A stretch of 41,231 nucleotides of DNA from positions 128,001 to 169,231 of the IMG/VR virus record IMGVR_UViG_3300028666_000024. One strand, given 5' to 3'. The notes below the pieces were generated by a model. The model ran no database searches. It was given only the letters and a program-made list of their open reading frames with translations, and had not been told where the DNA came from. This document shows, piece after piece, positions 20,766 through 41,231 of the stretch. A program made the translations under genes and the position numbers. The first letter of the stretch is position 1, and every line of letters starts with the position of its first letter. This DNA comes from a virus. Lineage: Duplodnaviria; Heunggongvirae; Uroviricota; Caudoviricetes.

Positions 20766-20796
20766 TTATTGAAACAAACAGAGAGAGGAAAAGTAA

Positions 20797-21993: not shown

Positions 21994-22001
21994 GAGTTAT
22001 T

Positions 22002-22604: not shown

Positions 22605-22612
22605 TATAGTTC

Positions 22613-22641: not shown

Positions 22642-22642
22642 A

Positions 22643-23701: not shown

Positions 23702-23702
23702 T

Positions 23703-24280: not shown

Positions 24281-24316
24281 TGAAGTTCAATTAACAAAGT
24301 TCAATAGGAGTATGAT

Positions 24317-24685
24317 ATGAAAATCAGAACAGGTTTTGTCAGCAATTCATCATCGTCTTCTTTTATTGTTGATACTGAGGCAGACAAGAATGAATTGGAA
24401 CTAATGAAAGTTAAATCATTTTCGGTTGATGAAATTATAAAGTATTATGAAAATATTTTAAAATCTCTTTCTAATGTCGATACTGCCGAAGAGATTATGC
24501 CTTACTTTATGACTCTAACTTATTCCTATAGACCAACTATATCTTCTATCAAAAAAGAACTTATGGAAGAGATTGAAGTTATGAAAAATTATAAAGGTAA
24601 ATACATAACAGAAGCAGTCGATAGGGATTGGGCGTATGAAAATATATTAACATTTAAACTCTCAACTTTCGAAACAGACTTATAA
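24317..24685 (+). CDS. FVSNSSS-motif protein 3
   Basis: N-terminus MKIRTGFVSNSSSSSFIV. Confidence 0.9.
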   Translation: MKIRTGFVSNSSSSSFIVDTEADKNELELMKVKSFSVDEIIKYYENILKSLSNVDTAEEIMPYFMTLTYSYRPTISSIKKELMEEIEVMKNYKGKYITEAVDRDWAYENILTFKLSTFETDL

Positions 24686-24686
24686 T

Positions 24687-25043
24687 ATGAAAATCAGAAC
24701 TGGTTTTGTTTCAAATAGTTCCAGCGCAAGTTATTTGATTATAGTTAAGAAAGAAGACTTTCAAAAGATTTATAATGGTTTGAAAGATTTTGAACAAAGT
24801 ATGATTAATGAAGTTTCAAAACCTTTTAAAAAATTTGGAATGAATCTTGTAGAAATTTATTTTAAACGTGATGAAGATTATACAACTCTTGATGATTGGG
24901 AAGAATCTAATAAGGATGATTTTACTCAAAAACAAAATTATTTATTTGAAGAAAAATATTATGGAGTAGGAAGATATTTTGAAGATAAAGTTATAAAAAA
25001 TTTTGAAAGTGTTGAAAATATTACACATTGTGATTTTGAATAA
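24687..25043 (+). CDS. FVSNSSS-motif protein 4
   Basis: N-terminus MKIRTGFVSNSSSASYLI. Confidence 0.9.
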   Translation: MKIRTGFVSNSSSASYLIIVKKEDFQKIYNGLKDFEQSMINEVSKPFKKFGMNLVEIYFKRDEDYTTLDDWEESNKDDFTQKQNYLFEEKYYGVGRYFEDKVIKNFESVENITHCDFE

Positions 25044-25067
25044 ATAACTAAATTCAAGGAGATTAAT

Positions 25068-25403
25068 ATGAAAATTCGTATGGGTTTTGTATCTAACAGC
25101 AGCAGTTCAAGTTTCTGTATTTATGGAGTAGAAATAACTGAAAAAGATATTTGTAAAATTTTAGATGTTCAAGACTTTAATTCTATCAATCATTATGTAG
25201 AAGATATTACCGAGAAGACAGATCTTGAGATGCATGGTAACGGAAATTCTGAAACTTATTATCTCGGTCGTAGTTTCAGTACAATTGGAGATGATGAAAC
25301 AGGCAAGGAATTTAAAAAGTCAATTGAAAATACTTTGAAAAAGTTTCTTGGAAATGATATTAAATGTTGTGATATTGAAGAAACCGGATATGATGTTTAT
25401 TAA
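25068..25403 (+). CDS. FVSNSSS-motif protein 5
   Basis: N-terminus MKIRMGFVSNSSSSSFCIYG. Confidence 0.9.
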   Translation: MKIRMGFVSNSSSSSFCIYGVEITEKDICKILDVQDFNSINHYVEDITEKTDLEMHGNGNSETYYLGRSFSTIGDDETGKEFKKSIENTLKKFLGNDIKCCDIEETGYDVY

Positions 25404-25427
25404 CATTAACATTAACAAAGGAGTAGT

Positions 25428-25772
25428 ATGAAAATTCGTATGGGTTTTGTATCTAACAGCAGTTCAAGTAGTTTTTGTATCTATGGGATGGAAATGGACA
25501 AAGAAGACCTTCTAAAGATTATTGGTAAGACTGAAGAAGAGTTTGGTGGAATGTATGATTCATTAGAAGAAGCGGCAGAGAAGACAGATCTTGAGATGCA
25601 TGGTAACGAAAATTCTGAAACTTATTATCTCGGTCGTAGTTATTCTCGTATTGGTGGTGAAGAAACAGGCAATCAATTCAAGGCAGATGTTGTAAAGAAA
25701 CTTAGTGATGCTCTTGACAGGAATGTTTCTGCATCTTGTAGTTATATTTCAGAAGCTTGGTATAATGGATAA
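25428..25772 (+). CDS. FVSNSSS-motif protein 6
   Basis: N-terminus MKIRMGFVSNSSSSSFCIYG; full-length paralogue of protein 5. Confidence 0.9.
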   Translation: MKIRMGFVSNSSSSSFCIYGMEMDKEDLLKIIGKTEEEFGGMYDSLEEAAEKTDLEMHGNENSETYYLGRSYSRIGGEETGNQFKADVVKKLSDALDRNVSASCSYISEAWYNG

Positions 25773-27865: not shown

Positions 27866-28009
27866 AAATATCACATGATAATCTTGGTGATAAAATGAAG
27901 AGCAAACTAACCTGTGAGTTCTTTTACGACTATATTGATTTTGATGATAGACTTAGACACTCATTAAAATTATCTTCGATTGTAGAGGATCTTAGGTGTG
28001 TTAAATTAA

Positions 28010-28039
28010 AAAGGCTCCAGAATTTCTTCTGAAGCCTTT
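28010..28039. terminator. Bidirectional terminator between convergent genes
   Basis: AAAGGCT.CAGAA-TTTC-TTCTG.AGCCTTT. Confidence 0.65.
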
Positions 28040-28061
28040 GAAAGAATTTGAAAAATTTTTA

Positions 28062-29000
28062 TCAATCTTCGGAAGCAAAATTAAACTTCCGGAGCGGTTT
28101 GACCTCGATCATGCTCGGAAGAATTTTTTCAATCTTTTCAAACTCCTTTTTGATTTCTTCCCGAAAATCATCATTTTTCCGAAGAACTTCAACATCACAT
28201 CCCTTCATGACAAGTTTTGCCTTTTCCACCAACTCAGTCAGGTCGTTATCATCCGTGATGTTCAGGTTTTTGAAGTTGTTGATGAATTCCTCAAAATTTT
28301 CAAAGGAGTTCTTTTTGAATCGCCGTTTATTTCCATCCGGACTGTCACCGAGGACTTCTGCAAGATGAGATATCAATTCTGCAAACTTCACCCGTAATGC
28401 CTGTTGAATCTCGATGGCGGCATTCTTCAACTTATCCGAGAACTCTGCACGTTCCCTCTTGAAGATTTCCGGAGAGATTGACTTCAGACGACCGGGGAGG
28501 GTTTCTTCGATGTAGTTTGTCTCGACCCCGAACTCAGCAGCGATGCTTTCCTTTGATAAATAGTCGGCAGGATTAAATACTCCACCGAGATCATTTTTGG
28601 CATCCCTGACAGCTTGTTCGTAAACGTCGATGAACTTTGAGATTTCCATCAAGCGCCGACTCCGGTATTCCTGAATCATGCTGTCAACAACTTCCAGATT
28701 GGCAAGGGGAATCAGGTAAACACCACGACCGAACGGAGAGGGAAGACTGAGTTTCAGGATATCCGACCTGATTGCATTGTCGGAACTCATGATTTCATCA
28801 AACTCCGGGCAACTGAAAAGTTTCTTCGATACCCCGATGTTCTCGGTCTTCGGTTGCTCACCATGACCTTCCTTGAGTTGCATCGAATCGCTTTGCACCT
28901 TGCGACGAATACCCGGACGGCTGATCTCAATACGGAACGCGATACACTTGTCAAAAAGATTTGGTTGGGTTTCGAGGAACGACTTTTTAGGCTTCTGCAT
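28062..29000 (-). CDS. DUF3150-like helical protein, GC-richer than flanks
   Basis: SKKL...SLP...G.YLIP...F...YE......LG..FN..DY pattern; GGAGG RBS and own promoter. Confidence 0.6.
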   Translation of the reverse strand: MQKPKKSFLETQPNLFDKCIAFRIEISRPGIRRKVQSDSMQLKEGHGEQPKTENIGVSKKLFSCPEFDEIMSSDNAIRSDILKLSLPSPFGRGVYLIPLANLEVVDSMIQEYRSRRLMEISKFIDVYEQAVRDAKNDLGGVFNPADYLSKESIAAEFGVETNYIEETLPGRLKSISPEIFKRERAEFSDKLKNAAIEIQQALRVKFAELISHLAEVLGDSPDGNKRRFKKNSFENFEEFINNFKNLNITDDNDLTELVEKAKLVMKGCDVEVLRKNDDFREEIKKEFEKIEKILPSMIEVKPLRKFNFASED

Positions 29001-29115: not shown

Positions 29116-30396
29116 TTACTCCCATTCATTGAAAAAGAATCTGCTTTTCTTCGGTAATAGTTTTGAATTCAAGGACTTAGAATCTTTTATACACTCACAT
29201 TTCCTAATTAGTTTCAAAAACCTTAAAGATACTTCTGTATTATACGCTGATCCGTTGTTCGAAGCAAACCATCTGACGATAACTCTTTTGGGTTTTTCAA
29301 AATTAATAATCTTTCCTCTTCTACCCACATTAATGGATTGAGAGAATCTAGTATCTTCCAAACAATTCTCTACAATATCACCAACATCAAACATTTCATA
29401 CTCTTCTTCCCGCGAAATCATATCATCTTCACAATACCAACCATAACCAGCAGAACAAAGTCCGTTGCAGTTGATTCCTCCAACGTATTCATCCCATTCA
29501 ACTCCGATTAATTCAGAGTCAAATCCTATAATGGTTCCAGTCAAATCTTTCCAAATCTTTCCAAAATTTGTTTTAATATCCTGAGTTGCAGTGACCTTAT
29601 CCCCGATCTGAAGTTCCCGAAAAGTGAATTTACTTACAAATCGTATTTGATTAAAATTACAAGTTATAAAAGCATCTCCTGATGATCTTTTATCTGGAGA
29701 TTTGTTTTTTATATAAAATTGAATAGTTCCTTGTCCTACACTTGCAACCTCAAGAATTTTTCCACTTAGATATTTAAAGCAATCATCTACACAATAAATA
29801 ATCTTTACATACTCTCCCGGTTTGAGTGCATCTTTATCTTCAAAAGATTTTTCCGAATATTGTGGTGAAGGAGTTGTGGATTTAGTTAGATCATCACAAG
29901 AAATAAATTCACACCGGGACTTATCGATATACCAAAGGGAATTTTTTGGACCATCACCAGTAGTTAAAGTATTCCAATCAACATAATAACATGAAGTACT
30001 TTCATCAACAATAGTTCCAACCATACCCCCTATGATTTTATCTTCCATAAAACCTTTAACTTCATTTTTAATACAAATAACATAACTTCCAATCTTTGAT
30101 ATCTTTGGTATTGGTGGTTGAAGAGATGTATAATTTAATTTTATTTTATTTTCTTCTTCAGGCGAATCTATTTTTTTGATGAATTTTTCTAATTCATTTT
30201 TAGGCCATATTATAATCCACCCATTCATTGGGTTTCCAGCAGAACTTATAATGGGAATATCCCAATCAACAATAAAATCTCCATCACTATCGATTTTTAT
30301 AATTTTTCCTTTCATACCAACTTTTAAATTCCAAGGAGTATCAAAACTTGAATAGTTTTTTATGACTTCAATCCTATCTTTTACTTTAAAATTCAT
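29116..30396 (-). CDS. Multi SH3/CAP-Gly-like domain protein with KKSRFFF tail
   Basis: About five modules of type (GD/G).V...G.(I/V)...V.W, including GVEWDEYVGGINCNGLC; ends KKSRFFFNEWE. Confidence 0.65.
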   Translation of the reverse strand: MNFKVKDRIEVIKNYSSFDTPWNLKVGMKGKIIKIDSDGDFIVDWDIPIISSAGNPMNGWIIIWPKNELEKFIKKIDSPEEENKIKLNYTSLQPPIPKISKIGSYVICIKNEVKGFMEDKIIGGMVGTIVDESTSCYYVDWNTLTTGDGPKNSLWYIDKSRCEFISCDDLTKSTTPSPQYSEKSFEDKDALKPGEYVKIIYCVDDCFKYLSGKILEVASVGQGTIQFYIKNKSPDKRSSGDAFITCNFNQIRFVSKFTFRELQIGDKVTATQDIKTNFGKIWKDLTGTIIGFDSELIGVEWDEYVGGINCNGLCSAGYGWYCEDDMISREEEYEMFDVGDIVENCLEDTRFSQSINVGRRGKIINFEKPKRVIVRWFASNNGSAYNTEVSLRFLKLIRKCECIKDSKSLNSKLLPKKSRFFFNEWE

Positions 30397-30431
30397 TTTG
30401 AATTCCTTTTGAAGAAGATTTTGAATCTTTA

Positions 30432-30460
30432 AAAATAATTCATGGCAGAAATAAAATCAA
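30432..30460 (-). promoter_or_regulatory. sigma70-like promoter (divergent pair, leftward)
   Basis: TTGATT-17-TATTTT, shares CCATGAATTA with the rightward promoter. Confidence 0.6.
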
Positions 30461-30503
30461 GATTTATTTTGAAAGGGATTTAAAATAATTGAAAATAAAG
30501 TTC

Positions 30504-30532
30504 TTGCATTTGATTGTACCATGAATTATATT
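30504..30532 (+). promoter_or_regulatory. sigma70-like promoter, class B (divergent pair, rightward)
   Basis: TTGCAT-17-TATATT. Confidence 0.75.
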
Positions 30533-30560
30533 TTGATATCATTTCCGAAAGAGGTTTATC

Positions 30561-31112
30561 TTGCTGCTCCCTGAAGAAATAATTGTCGGCAAACAAATCT
30601 ATATTGTTTATGATTTTAATGAATTGTGGGGAGGATTTCCAAAACTAATTATTTTAAAAACTGAAATCATAGATATCTCTCAAGGACTTATACATACAGG
30701 TTGGGTTCGTTCACCTGATCCTAGAGATATGAAATTTAAAGATAGTTGGTTCCCGGAGGAGATACAAAAACATGGACATAAAACATATATCTCTGCTTCC
30801 TTTGATAAAGATAATTGGATTGATGAAATAATTCAAAAGTTAAATCTTCAAAAGAATATTTCAAAAACACTTTATTATAGTTCGGAGTCATTTATGCCAA
30901 CTGAAAAAGAATTTAAAAGAATTGCTAATAACAGCACTTCCAAAGATTTTCAAACTGTTTGTGAAAAGAAAATTCGATGGGTAACTATCTTCAGTCATGA
31001 GAAAGAAGGATTTGCAAAGGTTGATATTTTTCCTGAAACTTCGGAAGAATATGAAAAGATTGAAAACTGTTTTAAAGAAATTTTAAACAAACGGAGAGAA
31101 AATCCCGTTTAA
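30561..31112 (+). CDS. Hypothetical protein
   Basis: GAGGT RBS, TTG start after the promoter. Confidence 0.7.
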   Translation: MLLPEEIIVGKQIYIVYDFNELWGGFPKLIILKTEIIDISQGLIHTGWVRSPDPRDMKFKDSWFPEEIQKHGHKTYISASFDKDNWIDEIIQKLNLQKNISKTLYYSSESFMPTEKEFKRIANNSTSKDFQTVCEKKIRWVTIFSHEKEGFAKVDIFPETSEEYEKIENCFKEILNKRRENPV

Positions 31113-31129
31113 ACGAAAGGATAAAGAAA

Positions 31130-31327
31130 ATGAGTAACTTTTTTTGGGGGGTTTTCTTTAGTGCGGCAGTTACACTTTTAATAACATTGAGTATTGGTGA
31201 TGATAAATCTAAACATATGATGGAGAGACATCTTGGAACTCAGGTTGTTAATGGAGTAGTTTATAATGTCTCTATTGATAGCACTGCGACAGATTCACTT
31301 CATAAAATTGAATGGAGGAAAAAATAA
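31130..31327 (+). CDS. Small membrane-anchored protein
   Basis: AAGGA RBS; N-terminal hydrophobic helix. Confidence 0.65.
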   Translation: MSNFFWGVFFSAAVTLLITLSIGDDKSKHMMERHLGTQVVNGVVYNVSIDSTATDSLHKIEWRKK

Positions 31328-31402
31328 TTTGAAAGAAGTTTAAAATTTACAGAAGAAAATAATGTCAAACTTTTAATAACTCATAAAGATTTAAATATCT
31401 AT

Positions 31403-31654
31403 GTGGATTATTTCTTTGTTCCTTTAAAATTAAGAGGACAAGGATTAGCAAAGAAGACTATGAAACTTCTTTGTGAACATGCTGATAAATTTAAAACTAA
31501 TATAGAATTATTTCCTTGTCCATTAGATAAACAAACTGACCGGGAAAAACTTCTAAAATTTTACAGAGATTTTGGATTCAAGAGAGAATTATTTTCCCAC
31601 AAATACAAAAGGAAATTTAACCGTGGCAGACGAATACCGAAGGGAAATGGATAA
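31403..31654 (+). CDS. GNAT-family acetyltransferase, 5' end possibly damaged
   Basis: VP..LRGQGLAKK acetyl-CoA motif and L.KFYRDFGF; frame is open back to 31328 with no start codon. Confidence 0.65.
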   Translation: MDYFFVPLKLRGQGLAKKTMKLLCEHADKFKTNIELFPCPLDKQTDREKLLKFYRDFGFKRELFSHKYKRKFNRGRRIPKGNG

Positions 31655-31844
31655 TAAAGTTGGTGTTGGAGGTGTAAAGTGTTTCTGTTGCAACGTATAT
31701 CATGGTAAATCCAAGGCAATACTTAATAGGATAGTACGACGAAAACTCAAGGAGAGAATTAAAAACGAAATACATGAAGAGTCAAACCCCAAAATCACAA
31801 TCAACTATCTCAGGAGTAATACAAATGGATCAGCAGACAAGTGA
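31623..31844 (+). CDS. Small basic hypothetical protein
   Basis: AAGGA RBS before GTG 31623; GGVKCFCC motif. Confidence 0.5.
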   Translation: MADEYRREMDNKVGVGGVKCFCCNVYHGKSKAILNRIVRRKLKERIKNEIHEESNPKITINYLRSNTNGSADK

Positions 31845-31950
31845 AGTTTTGACAAACGAAATTATGTTGGGTGCCGGATGCTCTGAAGTTTTTCTGTGCT
31901 GCGATTGTCCAATTCAAAACAAATGTGATGATTATTTCCTGAAAGATTAA
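31774..31950 (+). CDS. Small Cys-rich protein (58 aa)
   Basis: C....CCDCP....C; TAATG coupling to 31950. Confidence 0.5.
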   Translation: MKSQTPKSQSTISGVIQMDQQTSEVLTNEIMLGAGCSEVFLCCDCPIQNKCDDYFLKD

Positions 31951-32702
31951 TGTTTAACCCAAAAGATTTAAATATAATAGAGGTTGATAACGGAAATTAT
32001 AATGTTAATTATAATGTTTCCTATAATCCAGATTTTGATAACGGAAATTATAATGTTAATTATAATGTTTCCTATAATCCAGATTTTGATAACGGAAATT
32101 ATAATGTTAATTATAATGTTTCCTATAATCCAGATTTTGATTGGTATTATTATCCTCCTGATGAAAAAAAACCTGAGATAGAAGAATGTAGTGTTGTTGC
32201 AAAGAATAATTATTTAAATGTTATTAAGAAGGGAATGATTGGTGAAGTTGTTGTAAAAGATATAGTAAACAAAGAACCCCTTTTTGGTGTTGATTGGGCG
32301 GATTTTACTGGAGGTCATGATTGTAATGGTAATGGTAGAAAAAAACATTGCTTGTGGATGAGGGAAGAATATTTAAGATTGGCAGAGAAATCTGATTATA
32401 ATGAAGTTCCCATCACTCCAAATTGTATTTTTAAAATAAATGATCTTGTAGTTTCTGAGGTAAATCAATATGAAAATCAGTTGATGAAAGGTATGGAAGG
32501 AATAGTAAGAAAAATCAAACCAGAATCTACAAGTTTTGCCGTTGCTGTAGAATGGTTTGGTATTGTTGATGGATCTGATTGTGAAAAAAGTTGTAAAGAA
32601 AACAATGGATTATGGATGTTATATCCTGAAATTAAATTGAAAAATGATTTTAAAGATTCAAAATTTTTCTTTAAAAAGAGGAGATTCTTCTTCGATGAGT
32701 AA
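31950..32702 (+). CDS. Two-module SH3/CAP-Gly-like protein with N-terminal 17-aa repeat and KKRRFFF tail
   Basis: KGM.G.V...GVDW..GGHDCNG and KGMEG.V...VEW..GSDCEKSC; ends KKRRFFFDE. Confidence 0.65.
   Translation: MFNPKDLNIIEVDNGNYNVNYNVSYNPDFDNGNYNVNYNVSYNPDFDNGNYNVNYNVSYNPDFDWYYYPPDEKKPEIEECSVVAKNNYLNVIKKGMIGEVVVKDIVNKEPLFGVDWADFTGGHDCNGNGRKKHCLWMREEYLRLAEKSDYNEVPITPNCIFKINDLVVSEVNQYENQLMKGMEGIVRKIKPESTSFAVAVEWFGIVDGSDCEKSCKENNGLWMLYPEIKLKNDFKDSKFFFKKRRFFFDE
31984..32141 (+). repeat. Perfect 51-nt tandem repeat x3 (DNGNYNVNYNVSYNPDF)
   Basis: Units start at 31984, 32035 and 32086. Confidence 0.95.
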
Positions 32703-32751
32703 AAATTCTTATGGGACTAAACGTAAATTCTTTTTCGAAGATGAGGAATAA
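32695..32751 (+). CDS. 18-aa micro-ORF MSKNSYGTKRKFFFEDEE
   Basis: GAGGAG upstream; overlaps the previous stop; carries the same tail motif as three larger proteins. Confidence 0.45.
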   Translation: MSKNSYGTKRKFFFEDEE

Positions 32752-32756
32752 GATTA

Positions 32757-33086
32757 ATGATAAATAGTTTATGGTCACAGGATATTTTTATTCAACTTGC
32801 TGTACTTTTTAGTTGTCATTATTTCGCCGATTTTCCGATGCAGGGAGATTGGTTGAGTGAAGGAAAAAAGAAATCATGGTACTTTATGTTTGTTCATTGT
32901 ATGATTTATGCATCAACCTTTGTTCTCTTTGCTCATATATCTTTAACGGCAGCATTAATATTATTCGTAACACATTTTATAACAGATCCTATCAAAGCAA
33001 GATGGAATCTGATTTCATTTGAGATGGATCAAGCTATTCATTGGTGTGTAATAATTTTTATATGGTTACAATTTTATGTTCACTAA
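32757..33086 (+). CDS. DUF3307-like membrane protein
   Basis: HYFADFPMQ...K......HC.IY...HFITD.....DQAIH. Confidence 0.75.
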   Translation: MINSLWSQDIFIQLAVLFSCHYFADFPMQGDWLSEGKKKSWYFMFVHCMIYASTFVLFAHISLTAALILFVTHFITDPIKARWNLISFEMDQAIHWCVIIFIWLQFYVH

Positions 33087-33087
33087 A

Positions 33088-33176
33088 TTTAACGAAGTCT
33101 TTAACGAAGTCCTTTAACGAAAGGTAGTGTTTATGTCTAACAAAGTCTTTAACAAAGTCTTTAACAAAGTCTTTAA
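33088..33176 (+). repeat. Two short arrays of a 12-nt unit, tttaac(g/a)aagtc
   Basis: About 3 copies of tttaacgaagtc before the gene start and 3 of taacaaagtctt inside it (NKVF x3). Confidence 0.8.
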
Positions 33177-33366
33177 TGTTTCTTATAATGATATCGAAAA
33201 TGTTTGTTATGATGATGTCGAACAACTCCAACGGGAATATAACAAAACTCTCCGGGAATATAATGATACTAATGATTTATATTCTTACGAAAAACTTGAA
33301 AATCTTCTTGCAAAAATTCATAATCTTGATTCTAAAATTTTGAAAGAAACAGGTTATCAAAGTTAA
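33127..33366 (+). CDS. Hypothetical protein
   Basis: ORF; start probably ATG 33133. Confidence 0.55.
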   Translation: MFMSNKVFNKVFNKVFNVSYNDIENVCYDDVEQLQREYNKTLREYNDTNDLYSYEKLENLLAKIHNLDSKILKETGYQS

Positions 33367-33391
33367 AATTTAAAATAGATTTAAAAAAGAC

Positions 33392-33420
33392 TTGCATTCT
33401 TCCAAACCATGATGTATATT
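33392..33420 (+). promoter_or_regulatory. sigma70-like promoter, class B
   Basis: TTGCAT-17-TATATT with upstream TTTAAAATAGATTTAAAAAAGAC. Confidence 0.8.
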
Positions 33421-33457
33421 TTAAGTGTAATAAAATTCTTTATCTCAAGAGGATATT

Positions 33458-33712
33458 ATGGCATACAAATACGTCAGGTTTGAGAATGGAAGATATCAGG
33501 ATGGTCCGGAAGATTTTATCATTATCTTTCCGGGAAGCATCAATCATAAATCTTTTGCTCGAACAATTAGAGGAAAACCTGTTTCTGCCGGGAAGGTTGA
33601 TGTTGATGTAGAAGGTAAGTATTATGCATACGATGAATCTGAAAGTCTAAATTTGAAAAGTAATCCTGAAGCAGATTCAAAACTCCTTAATATTCAAAAT
33701 AGGATTTATTAA
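33458..33712 (+). CDS. Small phage hypothetical protein
   Basis: GAGGA RBS; KYVRF...IIFP..I.H...PVSAG...ESESL.LKS. Confidence 0.75.
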   Translation: MAYKYVRFENGRYQDGPEDFIIIFPGSINHKSFARTIRGKPVSAGKVDVDVEGKYYAYDESESLNLKSNPEADSKLLNIQNRIY

Positions 33713-33895
33713 ATGAAAACCTATCGAAAATGGACCGTGACTCTCACCAACGGAAAAACCCAAGTATACACTGAGGACGGAGACAATGTACAGATCGACG
33801 GTACCAGCACGGTATATCCGTTGCCGGTATTTTGGGCCGGGCTCGATAAGATGCGGGCGGCGGGGGGCACGATCACAGAGACTATCACGCACTAA
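33713..33895 (+). CDS. Small hypothetical protein in GC-rich insert
   Basis: Abuts the previous stop; GC3-rich codons. Confidence 0.6.
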   Translation: MKTYRKWTVTLTNGKTQVYTEDGDNVQIDGTSTVYPLPVFWAGLDKMRAAGGTITETITH

Positions 33896-33914
33896 TGCAA
33901 GAGGGGAGATGATC

Positions 33915-34115
33915 ATGACGTATATCGCACGATGGGACACGGGCAGCACGTACGGCAGTTTTGAGGGCGACAATTTACGCATAGTAAAGATTGAGGTCCG
34001 CAGGGTACTCGCGGGCAGCTTGCCGCGTGGCACGCGCGGTCGCTGGTCAATTGACTATCTCGATCAGACCAAAAGACAGATCGACCCTATCGCAGCCGGG
34101 ATTATCAGCAACTAA
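33915..34115 (+). CDS. Small hypothetical protein in GC-rich insert
   Basis: GAGGGG RBS then ATG 33909/33915. Confidence 0.6.
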   Translation: MTYIARWDTGSTYGSFEGDNLRIVKIEVRRVLAGSLPRGTRGRWSIDYLDQTKRQIDPIAAGIISN

Positions 34116-34239
34116 CCACAACACAACTTTAAGGATGAACAAATTCGAAATCTTATTAAGTTGATTTCAAAAAAAGCTTGGGAAGCCGGAAAAAAGAACA
34201 AAATGATTTCACCATTAGCAGTTGTGAAAGGTTAAACTA

Positions 34240-35106
34240 ATGTGTAACTCTGCCTCTTTCATCGTAACTCAAAATGATGTTTTGTTTTCCAAATATTCAG
34301 ATAGTCATGAAAATATCATATCGGAAAATAAATTGAATGACAAAACAGATACACCTGATTTTGTTCGAATAGAAATTTCTCCAAAGGATAATGATTATCG
34401 AACTCCTATGGAGAATTGGATATTTAAAACAGATCAGGATTTTCTGCCGGAATGGTTTAATATCCAAGAAGCAGAAATCGCCTGTCGAGATAAAATAAAC
34501 GAATGGGCGAAAACTCATATCATTCGAAAAGATACAAAAATTCCAATTGAGTTCACCAAACTGAATTTGATTATTTTATCCGGTAATGTGAAAATCGATA
34601 CAGTGTCTAGTGGATATGTCAGGAGTTATAATAAATCCAAACTGACAATCAATACATTATCTGGTGGATATGTCAGGAGTTTTGATACCTCCAATGTGAC
34701 AATCGATACAGTGTCTGGTGGATATGTCCGGAGTTATGATACCTCCAATGTGACAATCGATACAGTGTCTGGTGGAGATGTCTGGAGTTATGATACCTCC
34801 AATGTGACAATCGATACAGTGTCTGGTGGATATGTCAGGAGTTATGAGACCTCCAATGTGACAATCGATACAGTGTCTGGTGGAGATGTCGGGAGTTATG
34901 ATACCTCCAATGTGACAATCGATACAGTGTCTGGTGGAGATGTCCTGAGTTATGAGACCTCCAATGTGACAATCAATACAGTGTCTGGTGGATATGTCCG
35001 GAGTCGTGATACCTCCAATGTGACAATCGATACAGTGTCTGGTGGATATGTCAGGAGTTGTGGGACCTCCAATGTGACAATCAAAAATGATAGGAGGAGT
35101 AAATAA
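34240..35106 (+). CDS. Variable 18-aa repeat (beta-solenoid-like) protein, copy 1, 9 units
   Basis: Conserved ~117-aa N-domain (MCNSASF...SDSHE...FVRIEISP...DQDFLPEWF) plus TIDTVSGGYVRSYDTSNV-type units. Confidence 0.85.
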   Translation: MCNSASFIVTQNDVLFSKYSDSHENIISENKLNDKTDTPDFVRIEISPKDNDYRTPMENWIFKTDQDFLPEWFNIQEAEIACRDKINEWAKTHIIRKDTKIPIEFTKLNLIILSGNVKIDTVSSGYVRSYNKSKLTINTLSGGYVRSFDTSNVTIDTVSGGYVRSYDTSNVTIDTVSGGDVWSYDTSNVTIDTVSGGYVRSYETSNVTIDTVSGGDVGSYDTSNVTIDTVSGGDVLSYETSNVTINTVSGGYVRSRDTSNVTIDTVSGGYVRSCGTSNVTIKNDRRSK

Positions 35107-35108
35107 CC

Positions 35109-35306
35109 ATGATAATAATCCCAACTAGATATCGAGAACTCAAGAAGGAACTTGATAAGCAGACCTCAATATTCAAAAAATATGAGGCTGCATATAATCC
35201 AAGTGACCGTGACTCTCCTCTCACAAGGTTAAATCTTTCTCGAATGGATAGAGCAAGACAAGTAATCATAGAAATTAATAAATCACTCAAAACCAACCGA
35301 GGTTAA
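35109..35306 (+). CDS. Small hypothetical protein
   Basis: AGGAGG RBS, operon spacing. Confidence 0.6.
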   Translation: MIIIPTRYRELKKELDKQTSIFKKYEAAYNPSDRDSPLTRLNLSRMDRARQVIIEINKSLKTNRG

Positions 35307-35308
35307 TT

Positions 35309-36010
35309 ATGTCACAACTAACTGAACGGCCTTTAAAAGAACAAATAAATAAATTCAAGAAGAATAAAGAGATAGAGAATGAAATGATAAAGAATCTCTA
35401 TAACTCTCTTCTTCCACATCACAAAAATCTTCAGTTGGATATTCTCGACCGTGAAAAAATATTTTCTTCAGATGTAGGCAGTCAGGAAGATGTTGAAAAA
35501 ATTATAATTCCTTTTCAAATTTTTAAAATTGTTCTTAAAGATTTTTTCAATATTATTGCAACAGGACATAAGGTTTGGAATAATTATTATAATCATTTAA
35601 AAGGAATTGAATATTTTGTAAAGTTTGAAAATGATTATAAAGAGCATTGGTATAAAAATCCAAACTCTGTTATCAAAGCAGTTTCTAAATTTGTTGAAGA
35701 AGAAACTACTCGCCGGGATATTGTGGGGAAAGAAGAAAAGATTTATCAATCAGGATTAGAAACTATAAAACTTTTAAATTCATCAGCAAATTGTTTTTTT
35801 GTTGTAAAAACGTATAGCAAATTCGAACCGAGTAATAAACCAACTTCGCTTGTTCAAATTATTTATCCAAATGAATTTTCTTTTGTTATGAGTATTAATC
35901 CGGCGGAATATGTAAAGGATAAAGGAGTACCAGTTGATTTGAAAATTTGTTCAATAGATGTTTCAAAGTTGAATTTTGAAAAACTTGTAGAAACTCTTTC
36001 GAAAATTTAA
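35309..36010 (+). CDS. Hypothetical protein
   Basis: GAGGT RBS, 233-aa ORF. Confidence 0.75.
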   Translation: MSQLTERPLKEQINKFKKNKEIENEMIKNLYNSLLPHHKNLQLDILDREKIFSSDVGSQEDVEKIIIPFQIFKIVLKDFFNIIATGHKVWNNYYNHLKGIEYFVKFENDYKEHWYKNPNSVIKAVSKFVEEETTRRDIVGKEEKIYQSGLETIKLLNSSANCFFVVKTYSKFEPSNKPTSLVQIIYPNEFSFVMSINPAEYVKDKGVPVDLKICSIDVSKLNFEKLVETLSKI

Positions 36011-36024
36011 TAAGGAAATTTGAA

Positions 36025-36378
36025 ATGAATTTTAAAAAATATCCGAAGGAGTTAAGAATAATGATTAAACATAATATAGTATTTGAAGCAGATAAAACCA
36101 AACAACAAACCGTCTGCGTTATTGGTAATGGTGATGTTTGTTGTGGTTTCAAAACCCTTGATAAATCTTTAAACTTTTATAAGATTAAAAAGGGAACTTT
36201 CAAATCCGGCAAAGTTGATTTTAAAGAATTTGATAAAGTTGTCAAAGACAAGAAACCAGATTTAATTCTGAAGATAACTAATATCAAAACATTAAACGTT
36301 ATTCAAAAATGTCTTGATATATTATATGGAGTTTTACTACAGAAATCTCTTTCAAAATCTTTAAAGGACATTAATTAA
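36025..36378 (+). CDS. Hypothetical protein
   Basis: AAGGA RBS, 117-aa ORF. Confidence 0.7.
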   Translation: MNFKKYPKELRIMIKHNIVFEADKTKQQTVCVIGNGDVCCGFKTLDKSLNFYKIKKGTFKSGKVDFKEFDKVVKDKKPDLILKITNIKTLNVIQKCLDILYGVLLQKSLSKSLKDIN

Positions 36379-36379
36379 T

Positions 36380-37516
36380 ATGTGTAACTCAGCCTCGTTC
36401 ATCGTAACTCAAAATGATGTTTTGTTTTCCAAATATTCAGATAGTCATGAAGATATCATATCGGAAAATAAATTGAATGACAAAACAGATACACCTGATT
36501 TTGTTCGAATAGAAATCTCTCCAAAGGATAATGATTATCGAACTCCTATAGAGAGTTGGATATTTAAAACAGATCAGGATTTTCTGCCGGAATGGTTTAA
36601 TATCAAAGAATCAGAAATTGCTTGTCGAGATAAAATGAACGAATGGGCGAAAACTCATATCATTCGAAAAGATACAAAAATTCCAATTGAGTTAACCAAA
36701 CTGAATTTGATTATTTTATCCGGTAATGTGACAATCAATACAGTGTCTGCTGGATATGTCAGGAGTTATAATAAATCCAAACTGACAATCAATACATTAT
36801 CTGGTGGATATGTCCGGAGTTATGATACCACCAAACTGACAATCAATACAGTGTCTGGTGGATATGTCCGGAGTTTTGATACCTCCAAACTGACAATCAA
36901 TACAATATCTGGTGGATATGTCCGGAATTATAATACCTCCAAACTGATAATCAATACAGTGTCTGGTGGATATGTCTGGAGTTTTGATACCTCCAAAGTG
37001 ACAATCGATACAGTGTCTGGTGGATATGTCCGGAGTTATCATACATCCAAAGTGACAATCAATACATTGTCTGGTGGAGATCTCTGGAGTTATAATACCT
37101 CCAAAGTGACAATTGATACAGTGTCTGGTAGAGATGTTAGGAGTTGTGATACCTCCAAACTGACAATCAATACAGTGTCTGGTGGAGATGTCAGGAGTTG
37201 TGCTACCTCCAAACTAACAATCAATACATTATCTGGTGGAGATGTCCGGAGTTTTGATACCTCCAATGTGACAATCGATACAGTGTCTGGTAGAGATGTT
37301 AGGAGTTGTGATACCTCCAAACTAACAATCAATACATTATCTGGTGGAGATGTTAGGAGTTGTGATACCTCCAAACTGACAATCAATACAGTGTCTGGTG
37401 GATATGTCCAGAGTTTTGATACCTCCAAAATGACAATCAATACATTATCTGGTGGAGATGTCCAGAGTTATGAGACCTCCAAACTAACAATCAAAAATGA
37501 TAGGAGGAGTAAATGA
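36380..37516 (+). CDS. Variable 18-aa repeat protein, copy 2, 14 units
   Basis: Near-identical N-domain to copy 1; 54-nt repeat units. Confidence 0.85.
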   Translation: MCNSASFIVTQNDVLFSKYSDSHEDIISENKLNDKTDTPDFVRIEISPKDNDYRTPIESWIFKTDQDFLPEWFNIKESEIACRDKMNEWAKTHIIRKDTKIPIELTKLNLIILSGNVTINTVSAGYVRSYNKSKLTINTLSGGYVRSYDTTKLTINTVSGGYVRSFDTSKLTINTISGGYVRNYNTSKLIINTVSGGYVWSFDTSKVTIDTVSGGYVRSYHTSKVTINTLSGGDLWSYNTSKVTIDTVSGRDVRSCDTSKLTINTVSGGDVRSCATSKLTINTLSGGDVRSFDTSNVTIDTVSGRDVRSCDTSKLTINTLSGGDVRSCDTSKLTINTVSGGYVQSFDTSKMTINTLSGGDVQSYETSKLTIKNDRRSK

Positions 37517-37821
37517 TTATACTTATTATGCTTTGTAGTCTTGCATCAATATATTTAGTCATTACAAGTGGTCGGAATGAAAAAGTTTTTAAATTTAGAA
37601 TAAATGTTATTGATTTTGTTTTTGAATATAACATGCAACTGATTAAGGCATGTTGTAAAAATTTGGAAGAGCTTCAAAAGCTTAAACTTATAAACTCTGA
37701 AAATGTTCTTCCAATAAGTTATGGAAAGATGGTATGGTTGTATATCTGGATATGGGACTTTACAAAATGTATAAATCCTGAGTATAAGAAACAATATGAA
37801 GAATGGAAGAAAAACAATTAA
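37513..37821 (+). CDS. Membrane-anchored hypothetical protein
   Basis: AGGAGG RBS; hydrophobic N-terminus. Confidence 0.6.
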   Translation: MIILIMLCSLASIYLVITSGRNEKVFKFRINVIDFVFEYNMQLIKACCKNLEELQKLKLINSENVLPISYGKMVWLYIWIWDFTKCINPEYKKQYEEWKKNN

Positions 37822-37846
37822 ACTTTAACATCAAAAGGAAACAGTT

Positions 37847-38197
37847 ATGCCTATCAAAGACGAATCAGGATGGAAGAAATGTCAAGAGAATAATCAAGAT
37901 GCTTATGGTGGATGTTGTGTTAATGTTGCAAGGAAAGTTATGGAAATCCTTGACACAGAACCCGGAGACTTTGATCCACACCTTTTGATTTGTCGTGCTG
38001 ATAACGAAACAAACTCAGGAGGTATTACAGGTTATATGGCAGGTGCAGTAGCTTCTATAGTATCTAGTGTTCATTCAAGAGGAGATGAGTTCAGAAAGAA
38101 ATGGAACAATGATACTCAAATAGGAAATGAAGGCGAGGAGGCAACAGCAAAAGGCAGAACGTTGAATCCAGCACTGATTTCAATTGGAAGGAAATAA
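37847..38197 (+). CDS. Hypothetical protein
   Basis: AAGGA RBS, 116-aa ORF ending before the terminator. Confidence 0.75.
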   Translation: MPIKDESGWKKCQENNQDAYGGCCVNVARKVMEILDTEPGDFDPHLLICRADNETNSGGITGYMAGAVASIVSSVHSRGDEFRKKWNNDTQIGNEGEEATAKGRTLNPALISIGRK

Positions 38198-38201
38198 ATT
38201 T

Positions 38202-38240
38202 AAAAGGCTTTCCAAACTTTAAAAACTTGGAAAGCCTTTT
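38202..38240. terminator. Bidirectional terminator
   Basis: Perfect 14-bp inverted repeat AAAAGGCTTTCCAA/TTGGAAAGCCTTTT between convergent genes. Confidence 0.85.
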
Positions 38241-38305
38241 GAAATCTTTTTGAAATCTTTTTGAAATCTTTTTGAAATCTTTTTGAAATACTTTTGAAAT
38301 CTTTT
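38237..38305. repeat. 11-nt tandem repeat, about 6 copies (gaaatcttttt)
   Basis: Units at 38241, 38252, 38263, 38274, 38285 (variant) and 38296. Confidence 0.9.
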
Positions 38306-38606
38306 AAACTTTGACAACATTACAAAAGTTCTCCCGAAACTCCATTTTGTTTATATCATTCCCATACTTCCGATTAATTGCCGTTGCATAAATAAAACAA
38401 AACTTATTATCCTTATCCTTCCCTTTCACCATTCGAATCTTCGGGGCTATCGACTTCACAACAAATAACTCTCCCGGTTCAATAACAACATCCTCTCCCC
38501 ATGTGGTGGTTTCCTTAACAATGTTCTTAACGGTAACTTTATCTCCTACAGAAATACCATTGCAGGATAAAGGATGAAAAGATAATTTACAATTTTTACA
38601 AGACAT
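38304..38606 (-). CDS. Hypothetical protein with SH3-like module
   Basis: AAGGA RBS; ISVGDKV.V pattern. Confidence 0.65.
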   Translation of the reverse strand: MSCKNCKLSFHPLSCNGISVGDKVTVKNIVKETTTWGEDVVIEPGELFVVKSIAPKIRMVKGKDKDNKFCFIYATAINRKYGNDINKMEFRENFCNVVKV

Positions 38607-38618
38607 TTTAAATTCCTT

Positions 38619-39002
38619 TCAAACTGCTTTCTGAAGAATCTGAATAACCTCTTCAAGAATCCCTTGAGCAGCATAGATGTTGGGAGAATAGGTTCTTGCA
38701 TATCGATTAATACTTTCCTCCACAAGAATAGCAACAGTCATGGCGTTCTTCTTCATCCTCCTCTTGTCTGCTCTTTCCATTGACCTAATCTTCTTGATGT
38801 TGTTTAGAAATTTTAATTTACCTTTCCCGGCAATGAGTTTATTTATCTCCTCCTCTACCAACTTATCATTATCATCCCTTACTCCATTAATGATTTCACT
38901 ACCGATAATTTTTCCCTTATAGAAGATATCATAATAGAAGATATCATATCCACAAGGATTTGAAAAAAATTTAAAATCTGATTGTAAAAGTTTCATAGTC
39001 AT
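38619..39002 (-). CDS. Hypothetical protein
   Basis: AAGGAG RBS. Confidence 0.7.
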   Translation of the reverse strand: MTMKLLQSDFKFFSNPCGYDIFYYDIFYKGKIIGSEIINGVRDDNDKLVEEEINKLIAGKGKLKFLNNIKKIRSMERADKRRMKKNAMTVAILVEESINRYARTYSPNIYAAQGILEEVIQILQKAV

Positions 39003-39026
39003 TTTAAAACTCCTTTCAAAGATTTT

Positions 39027-39248
39027 TCAAAGGATGATAATACTTGACTTATCCGATTTGATAACTACAGCATATGCTACGATAGACTTCCCATAACACT
39101 CCGGACGGATTCGAACAATAGAATCATCAGGAACACCATCAAGAAGTTCCTTGAGATATTTGACAGTTAAAGACTTCGTTAAAGACTTCGTTAAAGACTT
39201 CGTTAAAGACTTCGTTAAAGACTTCGTTAAAGATTTATTCAATTTCAT
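39027..39248 (-). CDS. Small hypothetical protein with KSLT repeats
   Basis: GGAGG RBS before ATG 39248; TVKYLKELL..VPDD pattern. Confidence 0.65.
   Translation of the reverse strand: MKLNKSLTKSLTKSLTKSLTKSLTKSLTVKYLKELLDGVPDDSIVRIRPECYGKSIVAYAVVIKSDKSSIIIL
39166..39233 (-). repeat. 12-nt tandem repeat x5.7 (gttaaagacttc on +)
   Basis: Reverse complement equals the 33088 unit tttaacgaagtc. Confidence 0.95.
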
Positions 39249-39501
39249 TATCAATCCTCCCTATTGTCTCAGGGAAATATGCTTCTTGTAAAATATACTG
39301 ATCCTTTTTGAACATATCATTCAGAGCCTTGTAGAACTCAGGTGTTGATACAGGAATAGAGTTACCATCTTCCTCAGCAAACATATCAACACCATCTCCC
39401 ATCCCCTTACATTCTCCGGTTAAGGTATCCTCTATCTGGAAATCATGAAAGGTTTCCCTCCAGATAAACCGATGAACTTTTGAAAGTCCTTTGGAATTCA
39501 T
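39235..39501 (-). CDS. Hypothetical protein
   Basis: AAGGAG RBS before ATG 39501. Confidence 0.7.
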   Translation of the reverse strand: MNSKGLSKVHRFIWRETFHDFQIEDTLTGECKGMGDGVDMFAEEDGNSIPVSTPEFYKALNDMFKKDQYILQEAYFPETIGRIDNEIE

Positions 39502-39524
39502 TTGAAATCTCCTTTGAAAAGATT

Positions 39525-39776
39525 TTAAATAGTTTGAAACTTTTTGAGATATTCCATTCCCCAAGTTTCAATATCATCATCCGGATTATATGGAAGAATA
39601 TCAAAGTTGCCATTATAAATATCATTAGGCAAAGAAGATAATCCAGAACCATCTTTGAATTTGATGGATATCTTTAAAATCTTCTCCATCAAAGCAACTG
39701 ACGCTCCACGTATCCAAAGTTGATAACATAACATCTTGATGGTTTCTTCAGAAACTTTTTCTTTGGAAGAGTTCAT
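39525..39776 (-). CDS. Hypothetical protein
   Basis: AAGGA RBS. Confidence 0.65.
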   Translation of the reverse strand: MNSSKEKVSEETIKMLCYQLWIRGASVALMEKILKISIKFKDGSGLSSLPNDIYNGNFDILPYNPDDDIETWGMEYLKKFQTI

Positions 39777-39787
39777 AATGAATTCCT

Positions 39788-40064
39788 TTAAACCTTTTCA
39801 AGTCGTGTATTGATATGATCTTGCAAATCTTTGGAAAGACTTTCAAAAGTAATCTTCTTTCCAAGATGCTTTCCAACCTGACATGTGGAAAATTGAGAGA
39901 ATCCTGTATATGATGTTGGATAGACAAAGGCAGGGTCGAAGTCCTTTTATTTCCGCTGACTCACTCCACTCTTTACCATATATCACAACAGTATAACGGT
40001 CAAGTTGGTCTTCACCAGAATCATATATTGATATTGAAGTTCCCCGTTCAATAACATGTCTTAG
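39788..40064 (-). pseudogene. Frameshifted gene lacking an in-frame start
   Basis: Frame A reads ...IYDSGEDQLDRYTVVIYG...CLCLS; frame B continues PTSYTGFSQFSTCQVGKHLGKKITFESLSKDLQDHI...* to the next RBS; shift near 39920. Confidence 0.6.
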
Positions 40065-41012
40065 TTATCCTTTATCATTTTTGATTGTCAGTTTGGAGGT
40101 ATTTAAACTCCAAACATCTCCACCAGACACTGTATCGATTGTCACATTGGAGGTCTCATAACTCTGGACATCTCCACCAGACACTGTATCGATTGTCACA
40201 TTGGAGGTCTCATAACTCTGGACATCTCCACCAGACACTGTATCGATTGTCACATTGGAGGTATCAAAACTCCAGACACATCCACCAGACACTGTATTGA
40301 TTGTCAGTTTGGAGGTATTATAACTCCTGACATATCCACCAGACACTGTATCAAAACTCATAACATCTTCACCAGACACTGTATCGATTGTCACATTGGA
40401 GGTATCATAACTCCAGACATCTCCACCAGACACTGTATCGATTGTCACATTGGAGGTATCAAAACTCCGGACATATCCACCAGATAATGTATTGATTGTC
40501 ACTTTGGATGTATGATAACTCCGGACATATCCACCAGACACTGTATCGATTGTCACATTGGAGGTATCAAAACTCCGGACATATCCACCAGATAATGTAT
40601 TGATTGTCAGTTTGGAGGTATTATAACTCCGGACATATCCACCAGACACTGTATCGATTTTCACATTACCGGATAAAATAATCAAATTCAGTTTGGTGAA
40701 CTCAATTGGAATTTTTGTATCTTTTCGAATGATATGAGTTTTCGCCCATTCGTTTATTTTATCTCGACAGGCGATTTCTGCTTCTTTGATATTAAACCAT
40801 TCCGGCAGAAAATCCTGATCTGTTTTAAATATCCAACTCTCTATAGGAGTTCGATAATCATTATCCTTTGGAGAAATTTCTATTCGAACAAAATCAGGTG
40901 TATCTGTTTTGTCATTCAATTTATTTTCCGATATGATATCTTCATGACTATCTGAATATTTGGAAAACAAAACATCATTTTGAGTTACGATGAACGAGGC
41001 AGAGTTACACAT
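40065..41012 (-). CDS. Variable 18-aa repeat protein, copy 3, 11 units with one 7-aa in-frame deletion
   Basis: Near-identical N-domain; inverted relative to copies 1 and 2. Confidence 0.85.
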   Translation of the reverse strand: MCNSASFIVTQNDVLFSKYSDSHEDIISENKLNDKTDTPDFVRIEISPKDNDYRTPIESWIFKTDQDFLPEWFNIKEAEIACRDKINEWAKTHIIRKDTKIPIEFTKLNLIILSGNVKIDTVSGGYVRSYNTSKLTINTLSGGYVRSFDTSNVTIDTVSGGYVRSYHTSKVTINTLSGGYVRSFDTSNVTIDTVSGGDVWSYDTSNVTIDTVSGEDVMSFDTVSGGYVRSYNTSKLTINTVSGGCVWSFDTSNVTIDTVSGGDVQSYETSNVTIDTVSGGDVQSYETSNVTIDTVSGGDVWSLNTSKLTIKNDKG

Positions 41013-41030
41013 TTTGAGTTATCCTTTTAA

Positions 41031-41059
41031 AATATACAACATGCCGGGATAGAAGTCAA
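41031..41059 (-). promoter_or_regulatory. sigma70-like promoter, class B
   Basis: TTGACT-17-TATATT with upstream TTTAAATAGATTTAAAAA; spacer resembles the 29088 promoter. Confidence 0.8.
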
Positions 41060-41084
41060 ATGTTTTTAAATCTATTTAAAATTA

Positions 41085-41231
41085 TTTCAAAGTTCTTTCA
41101 AAGTTCTTTCAAAGTTCTTTCAAAGTTCTTTCAAAGTTCTTTCAAAGTTCTTTCAAAGTTCTTTCAAAGTTCTTTCAAAGTTCTTTCAAAGTTCTTTCAA
41201 AGTTCTTTCAAAGTTCTTTCAAAGTTCTTTC
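41085..41231. repeat. Perfect 11-nt tandem repeat (aaagttctttc), at least 13 copies, running off the window end
   Basis: 41089-41231 is 13 exact units. Confidence 0.95.

Follow-up and report, generated by a model that had tools for sequence, protein, structure and literature searches.

Proteins that couple a constant domain to variable, presumably target-choosing repeats are known from the IpaH/SspH ligases, which join leucine-rich repeats (LRR) to a NEL domain, and from the ankyrin-repeat/F-box host-range proteins of poxviruses; in both cases they form multigene families located in accessory regions. A different kind of relative is the Toastrack domain, in which DUF2807, DUF4097 and DUF2154 have been unified; the paper that did so calls the domain intracellular, describes an N-terminal 7-stranded region intertwined with the beta-helix, and proposes broad protein-docking sheets (10.1101/2020.09.24.301986). 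Here we describe a phage gene family in which a conserved head is followed by tandem 18-residue repeats with a few hypervariable positions. Three of its genes, A, B and C, lie in a stretch of 41,231 nucleotides (hereafter the window), positions 128,001 to 169,231 and thus the final 41 kb of the 169,231-bp viral record IMGVR_UViG_3300028666_000024. We favour, with a probability of about 0.55, the reading that these genes encode soluble cytoplasmic two-module phage effectors with a diversified binding face, which form a repertoire directed against variable host proteins. An intracellular binding face, probably serving counter-defence, would be the best available account of the architecture, the selection contrast and the gene neighbourhood.

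Nine paralogues built from a head and a predicted beta-helix

An earlier note on the window, made from the letters alone, had described three paralogues with 9, 14 and 11 repeat units. The unit counts were reproduced by an in-frame parse of the genes listed below, while the copy number was too low, since nine full copies and the remnant of a tenth are present in the 169-kb record, with 82 units in all.

34240-35106, plus strand: gene A, 288 aa
34240-34587, plus strand: N-domain of A, residues 1-116, starting Met-Cys (AlphaFold2 model of A, pLDDT 92.2)
34588-35073, plus strand: nine beta-helix units of 54 nt (18 aa) in A (repeat finder, in-frame parse and model)
34585-35082: 54-nt array in A as called by Tandem Repeats Finder (9.2 copies, score 800)
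35074-35106, plus strand: basic tail of A, VTIKNDRRSK, and stop; the AGGAG of the tail is the Shine-Dalgarno sequence of the next open reading frame (ORF), which starts at 35109
36380-37516, plus strand: gene B, 378 aa
36380-36727, plus strand: N-domain of B
36728-37483, plus strand: fourteen 54-nt units in B (Pfam DUF2807 match)
36729-37494: 54-nt array in B as called by Tandem Repeats Finder (14.2 copies, score 1063)
37484-37516, plus strand: tail of B, LTIKNDRRSK, and stop, with which the next ORF, starting at 37513, overlaps
40065-41012, minus strand: gene C, 315 aa
40665-41012, minus strand: N-domain of C
40092-40664, minus strand: eleven units in C, one of them lacking 21 nt (7 residues)
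40083-40667: 54-nt array in C as called by Tandem Repeats Finder (two rows, scores 393 and 479)
40065-40091, minus strand: shortened tail of C, LTIKNDKG, and stop

As the note had stated, the N-domains are nearly identical (96.5-98.6% identity among A, B and C over the first 345 nt), copy C is inverted, lying on the minus strand with A and B on the plus strand, and the units follow the motif it gave, which reads in frame as x-T-I-[D/N]-T-[V/L]-S-G-G-x-V-x-S-x-x-T-S-[N/K]. The six copies outside the window start at record positions 12547, 15739, 21039, 40345, 42680 and 43494. Seventy-nine of the 82 units are regular, two carry a two-residue insert (6 nt) and one is short through an in-frame 21-nt deletion. 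All nine copies have open frames, in-phase units and a kept tail and ribosome-binding site, and encode proteins of 252-378 aa. In an all-against-all comparison no other paralogue family of the phage came near them in size, and their flanking genes were not co-duplicated. Each copy keeps about 20 nt upstream with an AAAGGA ribosome site, the AGGAG in the 3' tail serves the next gene, and in five of the nine copies the next ORF begins 0-4 nt from the stop or overlaps it. The remnant of the tenth copy (last unit and tail, ...YVRSCDTSKLTIKNDKRITQ) was found at about 42600-42680 of the record, where it abuts the start of the 42680 copy; as this copy overlaps the start of the 43494 copy, the two make up, with the remnant, a decayed tandem triplet. 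By direct reading, the sequences of A, B and C contain neither a signal peptide nor a membrane segment, and they start MCNSASF, with no hydrophobic leader.

The beta-solenoid proposed for the repeats was recovered in the AlphaFold2 model of A (12-row alignment; pTM 0.85), where they are predicted to form a single-chain three-sided beta-helix. In a VIA-align fold search of 48,161 chains, residues 89-288 of A aligned to beta-helices, among them TibA (4q1q_B, Z 21.0), Ag43b (7kob_A, Z 20.8, rmsd 1.9 A over 187 residues), an antifreeze beta-helix (3p4g_A, Z 17.9) and the DUF2807 proteins 3ljy_A (Z 14.7), 3jx8_A (Z 14.1) and 3lyc_A (Z 12.8). The likeness to autotransporter passengers is a fold resemblance only, and Pfam found no autotransporter domain in A, B or C. 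Foldseek searches of the PDB with the whole A model and with the head alone returned nothing at E <= 1e-3. Pfam DUF2807 (PF10988, cut-off 24.2 bits) was matched above the cut-off by B (32.8 bits) and below it by A (17.5) and C (20.4), and a precomputed PF10988 match exists for two of the five other copies listed.

The head, of about 100 aa from Met-Cys, is far more widespread than this phage. A phmmer search with residues 1-116 against 1.84 billion representatives found 1209 clusters at E <= 1e-3, of which 449 reached E <= 1e-10. Among the 150 matches listed, every one begins at or near protein residue 1. Of these, 133 start Met-Cys; most of the remaining 17 are gene calls that were cut short or extended, and one has Gly at that position. 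An alignment of 135 rows shows no exchange at His23, Pro48, Pro70 and Trp72, and Ser6, Thr10, Glu45, Trp60, Asp65, Gln66, Glu79, Arg83, Leu86 and Trp89 are kept in at least 90% of the rows. The motifs of the family are DSHE, FVRVE-x-x-P, DQD-x-x-P-x-W and E-x3-R-x2-L-x2-W. The head model is confident (pLDDT 92.4), and DSSP assigned four or five short strands and helices at 23-29 and 75-93 in both models. The ESM Atlas clusters matched by the head were mostly viral and 'hypothetical'; a UBC-like row among them (TM 0.36/0.48) was too weak to use. A search of BFVD gave only two uncharacterised phage proteins (E <= 1.4e-3), a word-indexed search with residues 1-116 gave only the paralogues of the phage itself, and the source names of all family members met were 'hypothetical protein'. 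A literature search of titles and abstracts found no description of this Met-Cys head family. By sequence comparison, the head defines a large, unnamed and almost wholly viral family, uncharacterised in every library searched.

The same head was found on other repeats. Some of these are VSGG-type units of 16 or 18 residues or GTVNGG units of 15 residues; others have 8 residues and read STQxAG (a match to the Pfam ice-nucleation repeat), GNGTVKSV or DSATVxAx; and there are LRR-like units of 20-21 residues. The variable positions in the repeats of these relatives follow the same x-hydrophobic-x pattern. In an LRR-like relative of 16 units, the highest entropy (2.5 bits) falls on the two x positions on either side of a conserved L-x-L, and the x positions around L-x-L are ligand-facing in LRR proteins. 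Multiple copies also recur elsewhere, as 8 of 78 related viral loci carry 2-6 copies within 8 kb.

Variable positions, selection and exchange of units

With the units numbered in frame, positions 9, 11, 13 and 14 of the earlier note become 10, 12, 14 and 15. The greatest variation was indeed found at these four positions (entropy 1.53-1.91 bits, against at most 1.34 elsewhere, in 79 units), and all seven codons of NNG type that had been listed for its position 11, here 12, were recovered. V11 and S13 are each kept in 77 of the 79 units and alternate with the variable positions 10, 12 and 14, and DSSP places positions 10-13 of the A model in a strand. The variable residues map to one strand of the model, alternating with the conserved V and S; from the strand assignment and the alternation, positions 10, 12 and 14 would share the side opposite V11 and S13, and 15 would start the turn. 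Positions 1 (V/L), 4 (D/N), 6 (V/L) and 18 (K/N) are dimorphic, which gives two unit flavours. A TALE-like code of one rung for one nucleotide was also considered and seems unlikely, since the four residues occur in 38 different combinations over the 79 units, which speaks against a small discrete code.

The proportions of nonsynonymous (pN) and synonymous (pS) differences set the four columns apart from the rest of the protein. Pairwise pN/pS was highest in the four columns (2.44), lower in the rest of the repeat (1.11) and lowest in the N-domain (0.26), with pS being alike in the whole repeats (0.102) and the N-domain (0.109). The pN of the four columns divided by the pS of the whole unit was 2.93, with a bootstrap range over units of 2.40-3.67. 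Minimum-step counts gave 19 nonsynonymous to 1 synonymous change in the four columns, 29 to 6 in the other repeat columns and 21 to 19 in the N-domain, and the difference between the four columns and the N-domain was significant (Fisher p 0.001).

On the favoured reading, module 1, the 116-aa alpha/beta head with its Met-Cys, His23, Pro48, Pro70 and Trp72, would carry a constant activity or a docking function, and might hold a Cys/His catalytic or metal site. Module 2 would be a right-handed three-sided single-chain beta-helix of 7-14 rungs of 18 residues, in which positions 10, 12 and 14 would point outward from one strand and position 15 would lie in the next turn, so that the stacked rungs would present a long variable stripe, the putative target-binding face. 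This face would diversify by replacement at the four codons and by duplication, deletion and exchange of 54-nt units between copies, with no part played by a retroelement. The nine copies, expressed alongside known counter-defence genes, would then serve as a set of binders for variable host proteins, with targets of defence or takeover being the most plausible. The architecture, the variation sites, the selection contrast, the modularity across the family and the gene context are what the analysis shows; that the variable residues are exposed, that they bind, what they bind and any chemistry of the head are inferred.

A number of observations weigh against this reading. That the variable residues are exposed is concluded from periodicity and from the DSSP assignment of a model. 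Compared with the neutral site ratio, the count of 19 nonsynonymous to 1 synonymous steps was not significant (binomial p 0.15), and the units are not independent samples; of the earlier claim of diversification by selection, the excess of replacements over the N-domain stands, and an omega above 1 is not significant when judged by the step counts alone. The residue set is narrow, with D or Y at position 10 in 71 of the 79 units and R at position 12 in 43 of the 79, and the residues are blocky along the arrays, as in B, where position 10 reads six Y and then six D; such a narrow, blocky pattern would also be expected of stabilising surface ladders. Concerning the head, the invariance of Cys2 was scored on 135 rows chosen for their Met-Cys start. 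The best VIA-align matches of the head among the 48,161 chains were RNase PH-type exosome subunits at Z 4.6, which does not allow an assignment, and no chain reached Z 5. The head had no Pfam match, also over all 135 rows, and no NCBIfam, PADLOC or PDB sequence match. Since no fold or family is recognisable, the role given to the head is a guess. Finally, assembly of a metagenome from short reads could have made the unit order and the 'shuffling' partly chimeric.

Some of these points would suit a passive scaffold or self-assembling rod, akin to Toastrack platforms and bactofilins, whose variable residues drift or form ladders with no selection by a ligand. This applies to the narrow residue set arranged in blocks and to the step counts, which do not depart significantly from neutrality, and the Toastrack paper proposes broad docking sheets rather than specific paratopes (10.1101/2020.09.24.301986). 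However, neutral drift should bring the pN of the four columns to about the level of pS and not to 2.4-3.7 times that value. Moreover, the same positions vary in distant relatives and on an unrelated, LRR-like scaffold with the same head, and nine copies together with repeated expansions in other phages are hard to explain for a generic scaffold. We regard such a rod as rather unlikely.

As had been noticed earlier, identical 54-nt units recur between copies. They lie at shifted positions; unit 3 of A equals unit 4 of C, and unit 5 of B equals unit 2 of C. The exact tracts common to copies are only 31-104 nt long and often lie at shifted unit positions. Point substitution together with slippage and exchange at the scale of units fits the indels, the remnant of the tenth copy and the short shared tracts. 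A single public run, of DNA, was listed for the stretch, and no RNA run. The contigs of this DNA run, which may be the sample of origin, reproduced the unique flanks of A, B and C with 0-3 mismatches. These contigs break inside the arrays and N-domains, and none bridges an array or shows population variants. Because of these breaks, the number and order of units in each copy are those of the record assembly alone. Many related IMG/VR contigs (sixteen loci singled out, and others) likewise end inside the repeats. The family is probably under-represented in viral catalogues, because its genes seem to break short-read assemblies regularly.

The breaks, the related contigs that stop in the repeats of the homologue, the exact matches of up to 104 nt between copies, and a 'terminal repeat' of the record that is itself an 11-nt tandem array would all agree with unit shuffling, and perhaps unit counts, being products of short-read assembly across nine near-identical genes. 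Against this stand the nine frames, which are intact, in phase and properly ended, the reproduced flanks of A, B and C, the variation per unit, which fits within one read, and the independent contigs elsewhere with the same architecture. We hold such an artefact to be unlikely, and it would concern the order and number of units only, not the existence of the family or its variable positions.

The variable codons differ in bases 1 and 2 and keep base 3 (NNG, NNT), which superficially resembles the AAY-type targets of a diversity-generating retroelement (DGR), so that a DGR might be thought to have written the variation. The constancy of base 3 simply follows from low synonymous divergence. A search of the 169-kb record for RVT_1 (PF00078) at E <= 0.1 yielded no reverse transcriptase, the record being 74% complete and control genomes giving matches. 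Nor was there a non-coding template copy in the record, since every 54-nt array is inside one of the nine genes and nothing else resembles a copy except the short remnant of the tenth. The variation is moreover spread over 82 units in nine genes and not confined to one pair of variable and template repeats. We consider a DGR extremely improbable.

Gene neighbourhood and the phage record

Gene A, three small ORFs, gene B, a 102-aa ORF and a Tad4-like gene form a same-strand block with a spacing ranging from a 4-nt overlap to 25 nt. The features around the three copies are the following.

35109-36378, plus strand: three small ORFs between A and B, with gaps of 1-14 nt
37513-37821, plus strand: ORF of 102 aa, hydrophobic at its N-terminus, located between B and the Tad4-like gene
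37847-38197, plus strand: Tad4-like gene, last of the block (Pfam PF25186, Type I Thoeris inhibitor; phrog_9822)
38202-38240, no strand: terminator-like 18-bp perfect hairpin at the end of the block, where genes of the two strands converge
41031-41059, minus strand: promoter-like TTGACT-17-TATATT upstream of C (10/12 matches, a consensus match only)

The 116-aa ORF at the end of the block is a predicted Tad4-like protein, as residues 1-101 match PF25186 with 35.6 bits (cut-off 25; E 1.2e-8). Tad4 is reported to bind ThsB of Thoeris (PMC13728456). The earlier note had deduced an intracellular role from sigma70-like promoters. This argument turned out to be weak, with 43 promoter-like sites against 34.0 +/- 4.9 expected; a good site lies directly upstream of copy C only, B is inside the packed block, and A opens the block with no listed promoter-like site within 600 nt upstream. 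The intracellular setting itself, as opposed to a tail fibre, gained support on other grounds, for the gene context is one of early and counter-defence genes and not of virion genes.

The neighbours of the other copies are genes for NAMPT, a cytidylyltransferase/NUDIX (NMNAT-like) protein, RNA ligases, an RtcB-like ligase, a DNA ligase and a methyltransferase. Paralogues are interleaved with these genes at record positions 16919-19456, 19765-25511 and 39165-40340. The NAMPT and cytidylyltransferase/NUDIX genes resemble what we take to be an NAD+ salvage pair, and the two RNA ligases and the RtcB-like ligase presumably correspond to tRNA repair; we assume that the region as a whole resembles a counter-defence island.

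Related loci were surveyed where both flanks of the family member were present (24 loci). They have 196 ORFs that reach 110 aa or more and lie clear of the match, and the counts cover 141 of these neighbour ORFs at 18 loci, with six loci left out, one of them near-identical to a locus retained. The best PHROG matches were to DNA/RNA metabolism (19 ORFs), transcription regulators (5), integrases (3), head/packaging (3) and other functions (2), with 19 further ORFs in PHROG families of unknown function and 90 having no match. No tail or lysis gene and no conserved partner gene was found beside the family members at these 18 loci. The homologue of Dulem virus 35 has a cro-like repressor on one side and the replication genes on the other.

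This context bears on the possibility that the proteins are virion-associated adhesins, decorations or fibres, whose variable face would bind receptors on the cell surface. Beta-helices are common in tailspikes. Tailspikes and phage fibres are in fact among the fold matches (Z 12-15), and there is a weak PHROG match to 'virion structural protein' (E 0.02-0.03). However, with 252-378 aa the proteins are small, their models are monomers, and they have neither a trimerisation nor an anchor domain; the nine copies lie outside structural modules, amid replication, NAD-salvage, RNA-repair and Tad4-like genes; tail genes are missing from the neighbours in the 18 related loci; and a temperate-phage homologue is located in an early operon. 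A virion role appears quite improbable.

The record is that of a T4-like soil phage. T4-type replication genes in the window encode a clamp loader, a clamp, a single-stranded DNA-binding protein, a primase, an NrdD-like reductase and an RNase H-like exonuclease. The clamp loader shows an identity of only 36-37% with those of the best isolates (Ochrobactrum and Campylobacter myoviruses), and a megablast of window positions 30000-41231 against phages gave zero matches. The completeness of the record was taken from CheckV.

Other features of the record were observed alongside. A perfect 11-nt tandem array (unit TTTCAAAGTTC) occupies window positions 41085-41231 (13.4 copies), just upstream of the promoter-like site of copy C, and record positions 1-127 (11.5 copies). 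As the 'direct terminal repeat' of the record consists of this array at both ends, genome closure is uncertain; the array may be genuine and iteron-like or an artefact of assembly closure. The accessory region is dense in tandem arrays, mostly perfect, whose period is 10-12 or 51 nt; they are located at window positions 38237-38305 (93% matched), 39166-39233, 33138-33176 and 31984-32141 and at record positions 1976-2025 and 2575-2642. Some arrays are coding, such as KSLT x5.7 (ORF 39027-39254), NKVF x3 (ORF 33127-33366) and a 17-aa unit x3.1 (ORF 31950-32702). The many arrays suggest that slippage is frequent in this phage.

Window positions 33713-34115, immediately upstream of copy A, form a GC-rich patch (1-kb bins of 36-39% against 31% GC for the genome), whose two small ORFs had no match in Pfam or PHROG. 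Another GC-rich patch (0.436) lies at 28001-29000, with an unassigned ORF of 312 aa on its minus strand. Four adjoining small ORFs (100, 92, 122 and 114 aa) at 23703-25772 on the plus strand all match phrog_7397 through a common N-terminal stretch and make up a second, small paralogue cluster. A tRNA-Leu gene (anticodon CAA) lies at 11163-11243 on the plus strand, between the reductase and clamp genes.

Comparison with known systems

The family, with its new head, its interchangeable hypervariable scaffolds and its multigene expansions in phages, was found nowhere characterised in the libraries and the literature searched. In the main text of a catalogue of 268 anti-defence proteins, the words solenoid, beta-helix, leucine-rich and repeat do not occur. 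If the favoured reading is true, the family would be a class of phage accessory proteins that is widespread, with at least 1209 sequence clusters, and has no annotation at all. It would bring to phage counter-defence, where it has not been described, the design of a constant head and an evolvable binder known from effectors of bacteria and of eukaryotic viruses. It would also direct attention to host targets not known before and add a new small fold, possibly with a chemistry of its N-terminal Cys, and would offer a naturally diversified and very regular beta-helix scaffold for binder engineering.

A broader version of the same idea is possible, though we consider it doubtful. It would see in these genes a germ-line 'variable receptor' system spread across Caudoviricetes, in which a head of new fold is aimed at different host proteins by interchangeable hypervariable scaffolds, a beta-helix here and LRR or octapeptide solenoids in relatives, and multigene repertoires, such as the nine copies of this phage, track host defences with no retroelement involved. 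The head, with its N-terminal Cys and invariant His, may then be an enzyme or a recruiting module, and the system as a whole would be the counterpart, in viruses of bacteria, of the IpaH LRR-NEL or the poxvirus ankyrin/F-box proteins.

In terms of structure, the closest match is to the passengers of Ag43 and TibA, with repeats of AIDA-I type, which are likewise three-sided and Ser/Thr-rich, with rungs of about 18-19 residues. The proteins described here differ from the Ag43/TibA passengers in having no signal peptide and no beta-barrel translocator, but a 10-residue basic tail instead, and the identity is 11-16%. Toastrack proteins (DUF2807/DUF4097/DUF2154; LiaG, YvlB; 3ljy, 3jx8, 3lyc) share with A the single-chain right-handed beta-helix. 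Whereas Toastrack is described with an intertwined 7-stranded start, residues 1-116 form a separate alpha/beta head here. In contrast to Toastrack, this family is phage-encoded and multi-copy, has very regular 18-residue rungs with four hypervariable positions, and comes without a PspC, LiaF or membrane partner.

Regarding diversification, the family resembles the variable proteins of DGRs, such as Mtd of a Bordetella phage, in that a few hypervariable codons, predicted from the model to form a surface, are set in a conserved frame. It differs in that a beta-helix takes the place of the C-type lectin fold and the variation, found between repeats and between paralogues, is germ-line, and neither a reverse transcriptase nor a template repeat was found. 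With regard to the IpaH/SspH ligases and the poxvirus families, the head has no sequence or fold relation to NEL or F-box, and the host is a bacterium. What the phage family has in common with both is a constant head joined to variable repeats, LRR-like in some relatives, and its expansion into multiple genes.

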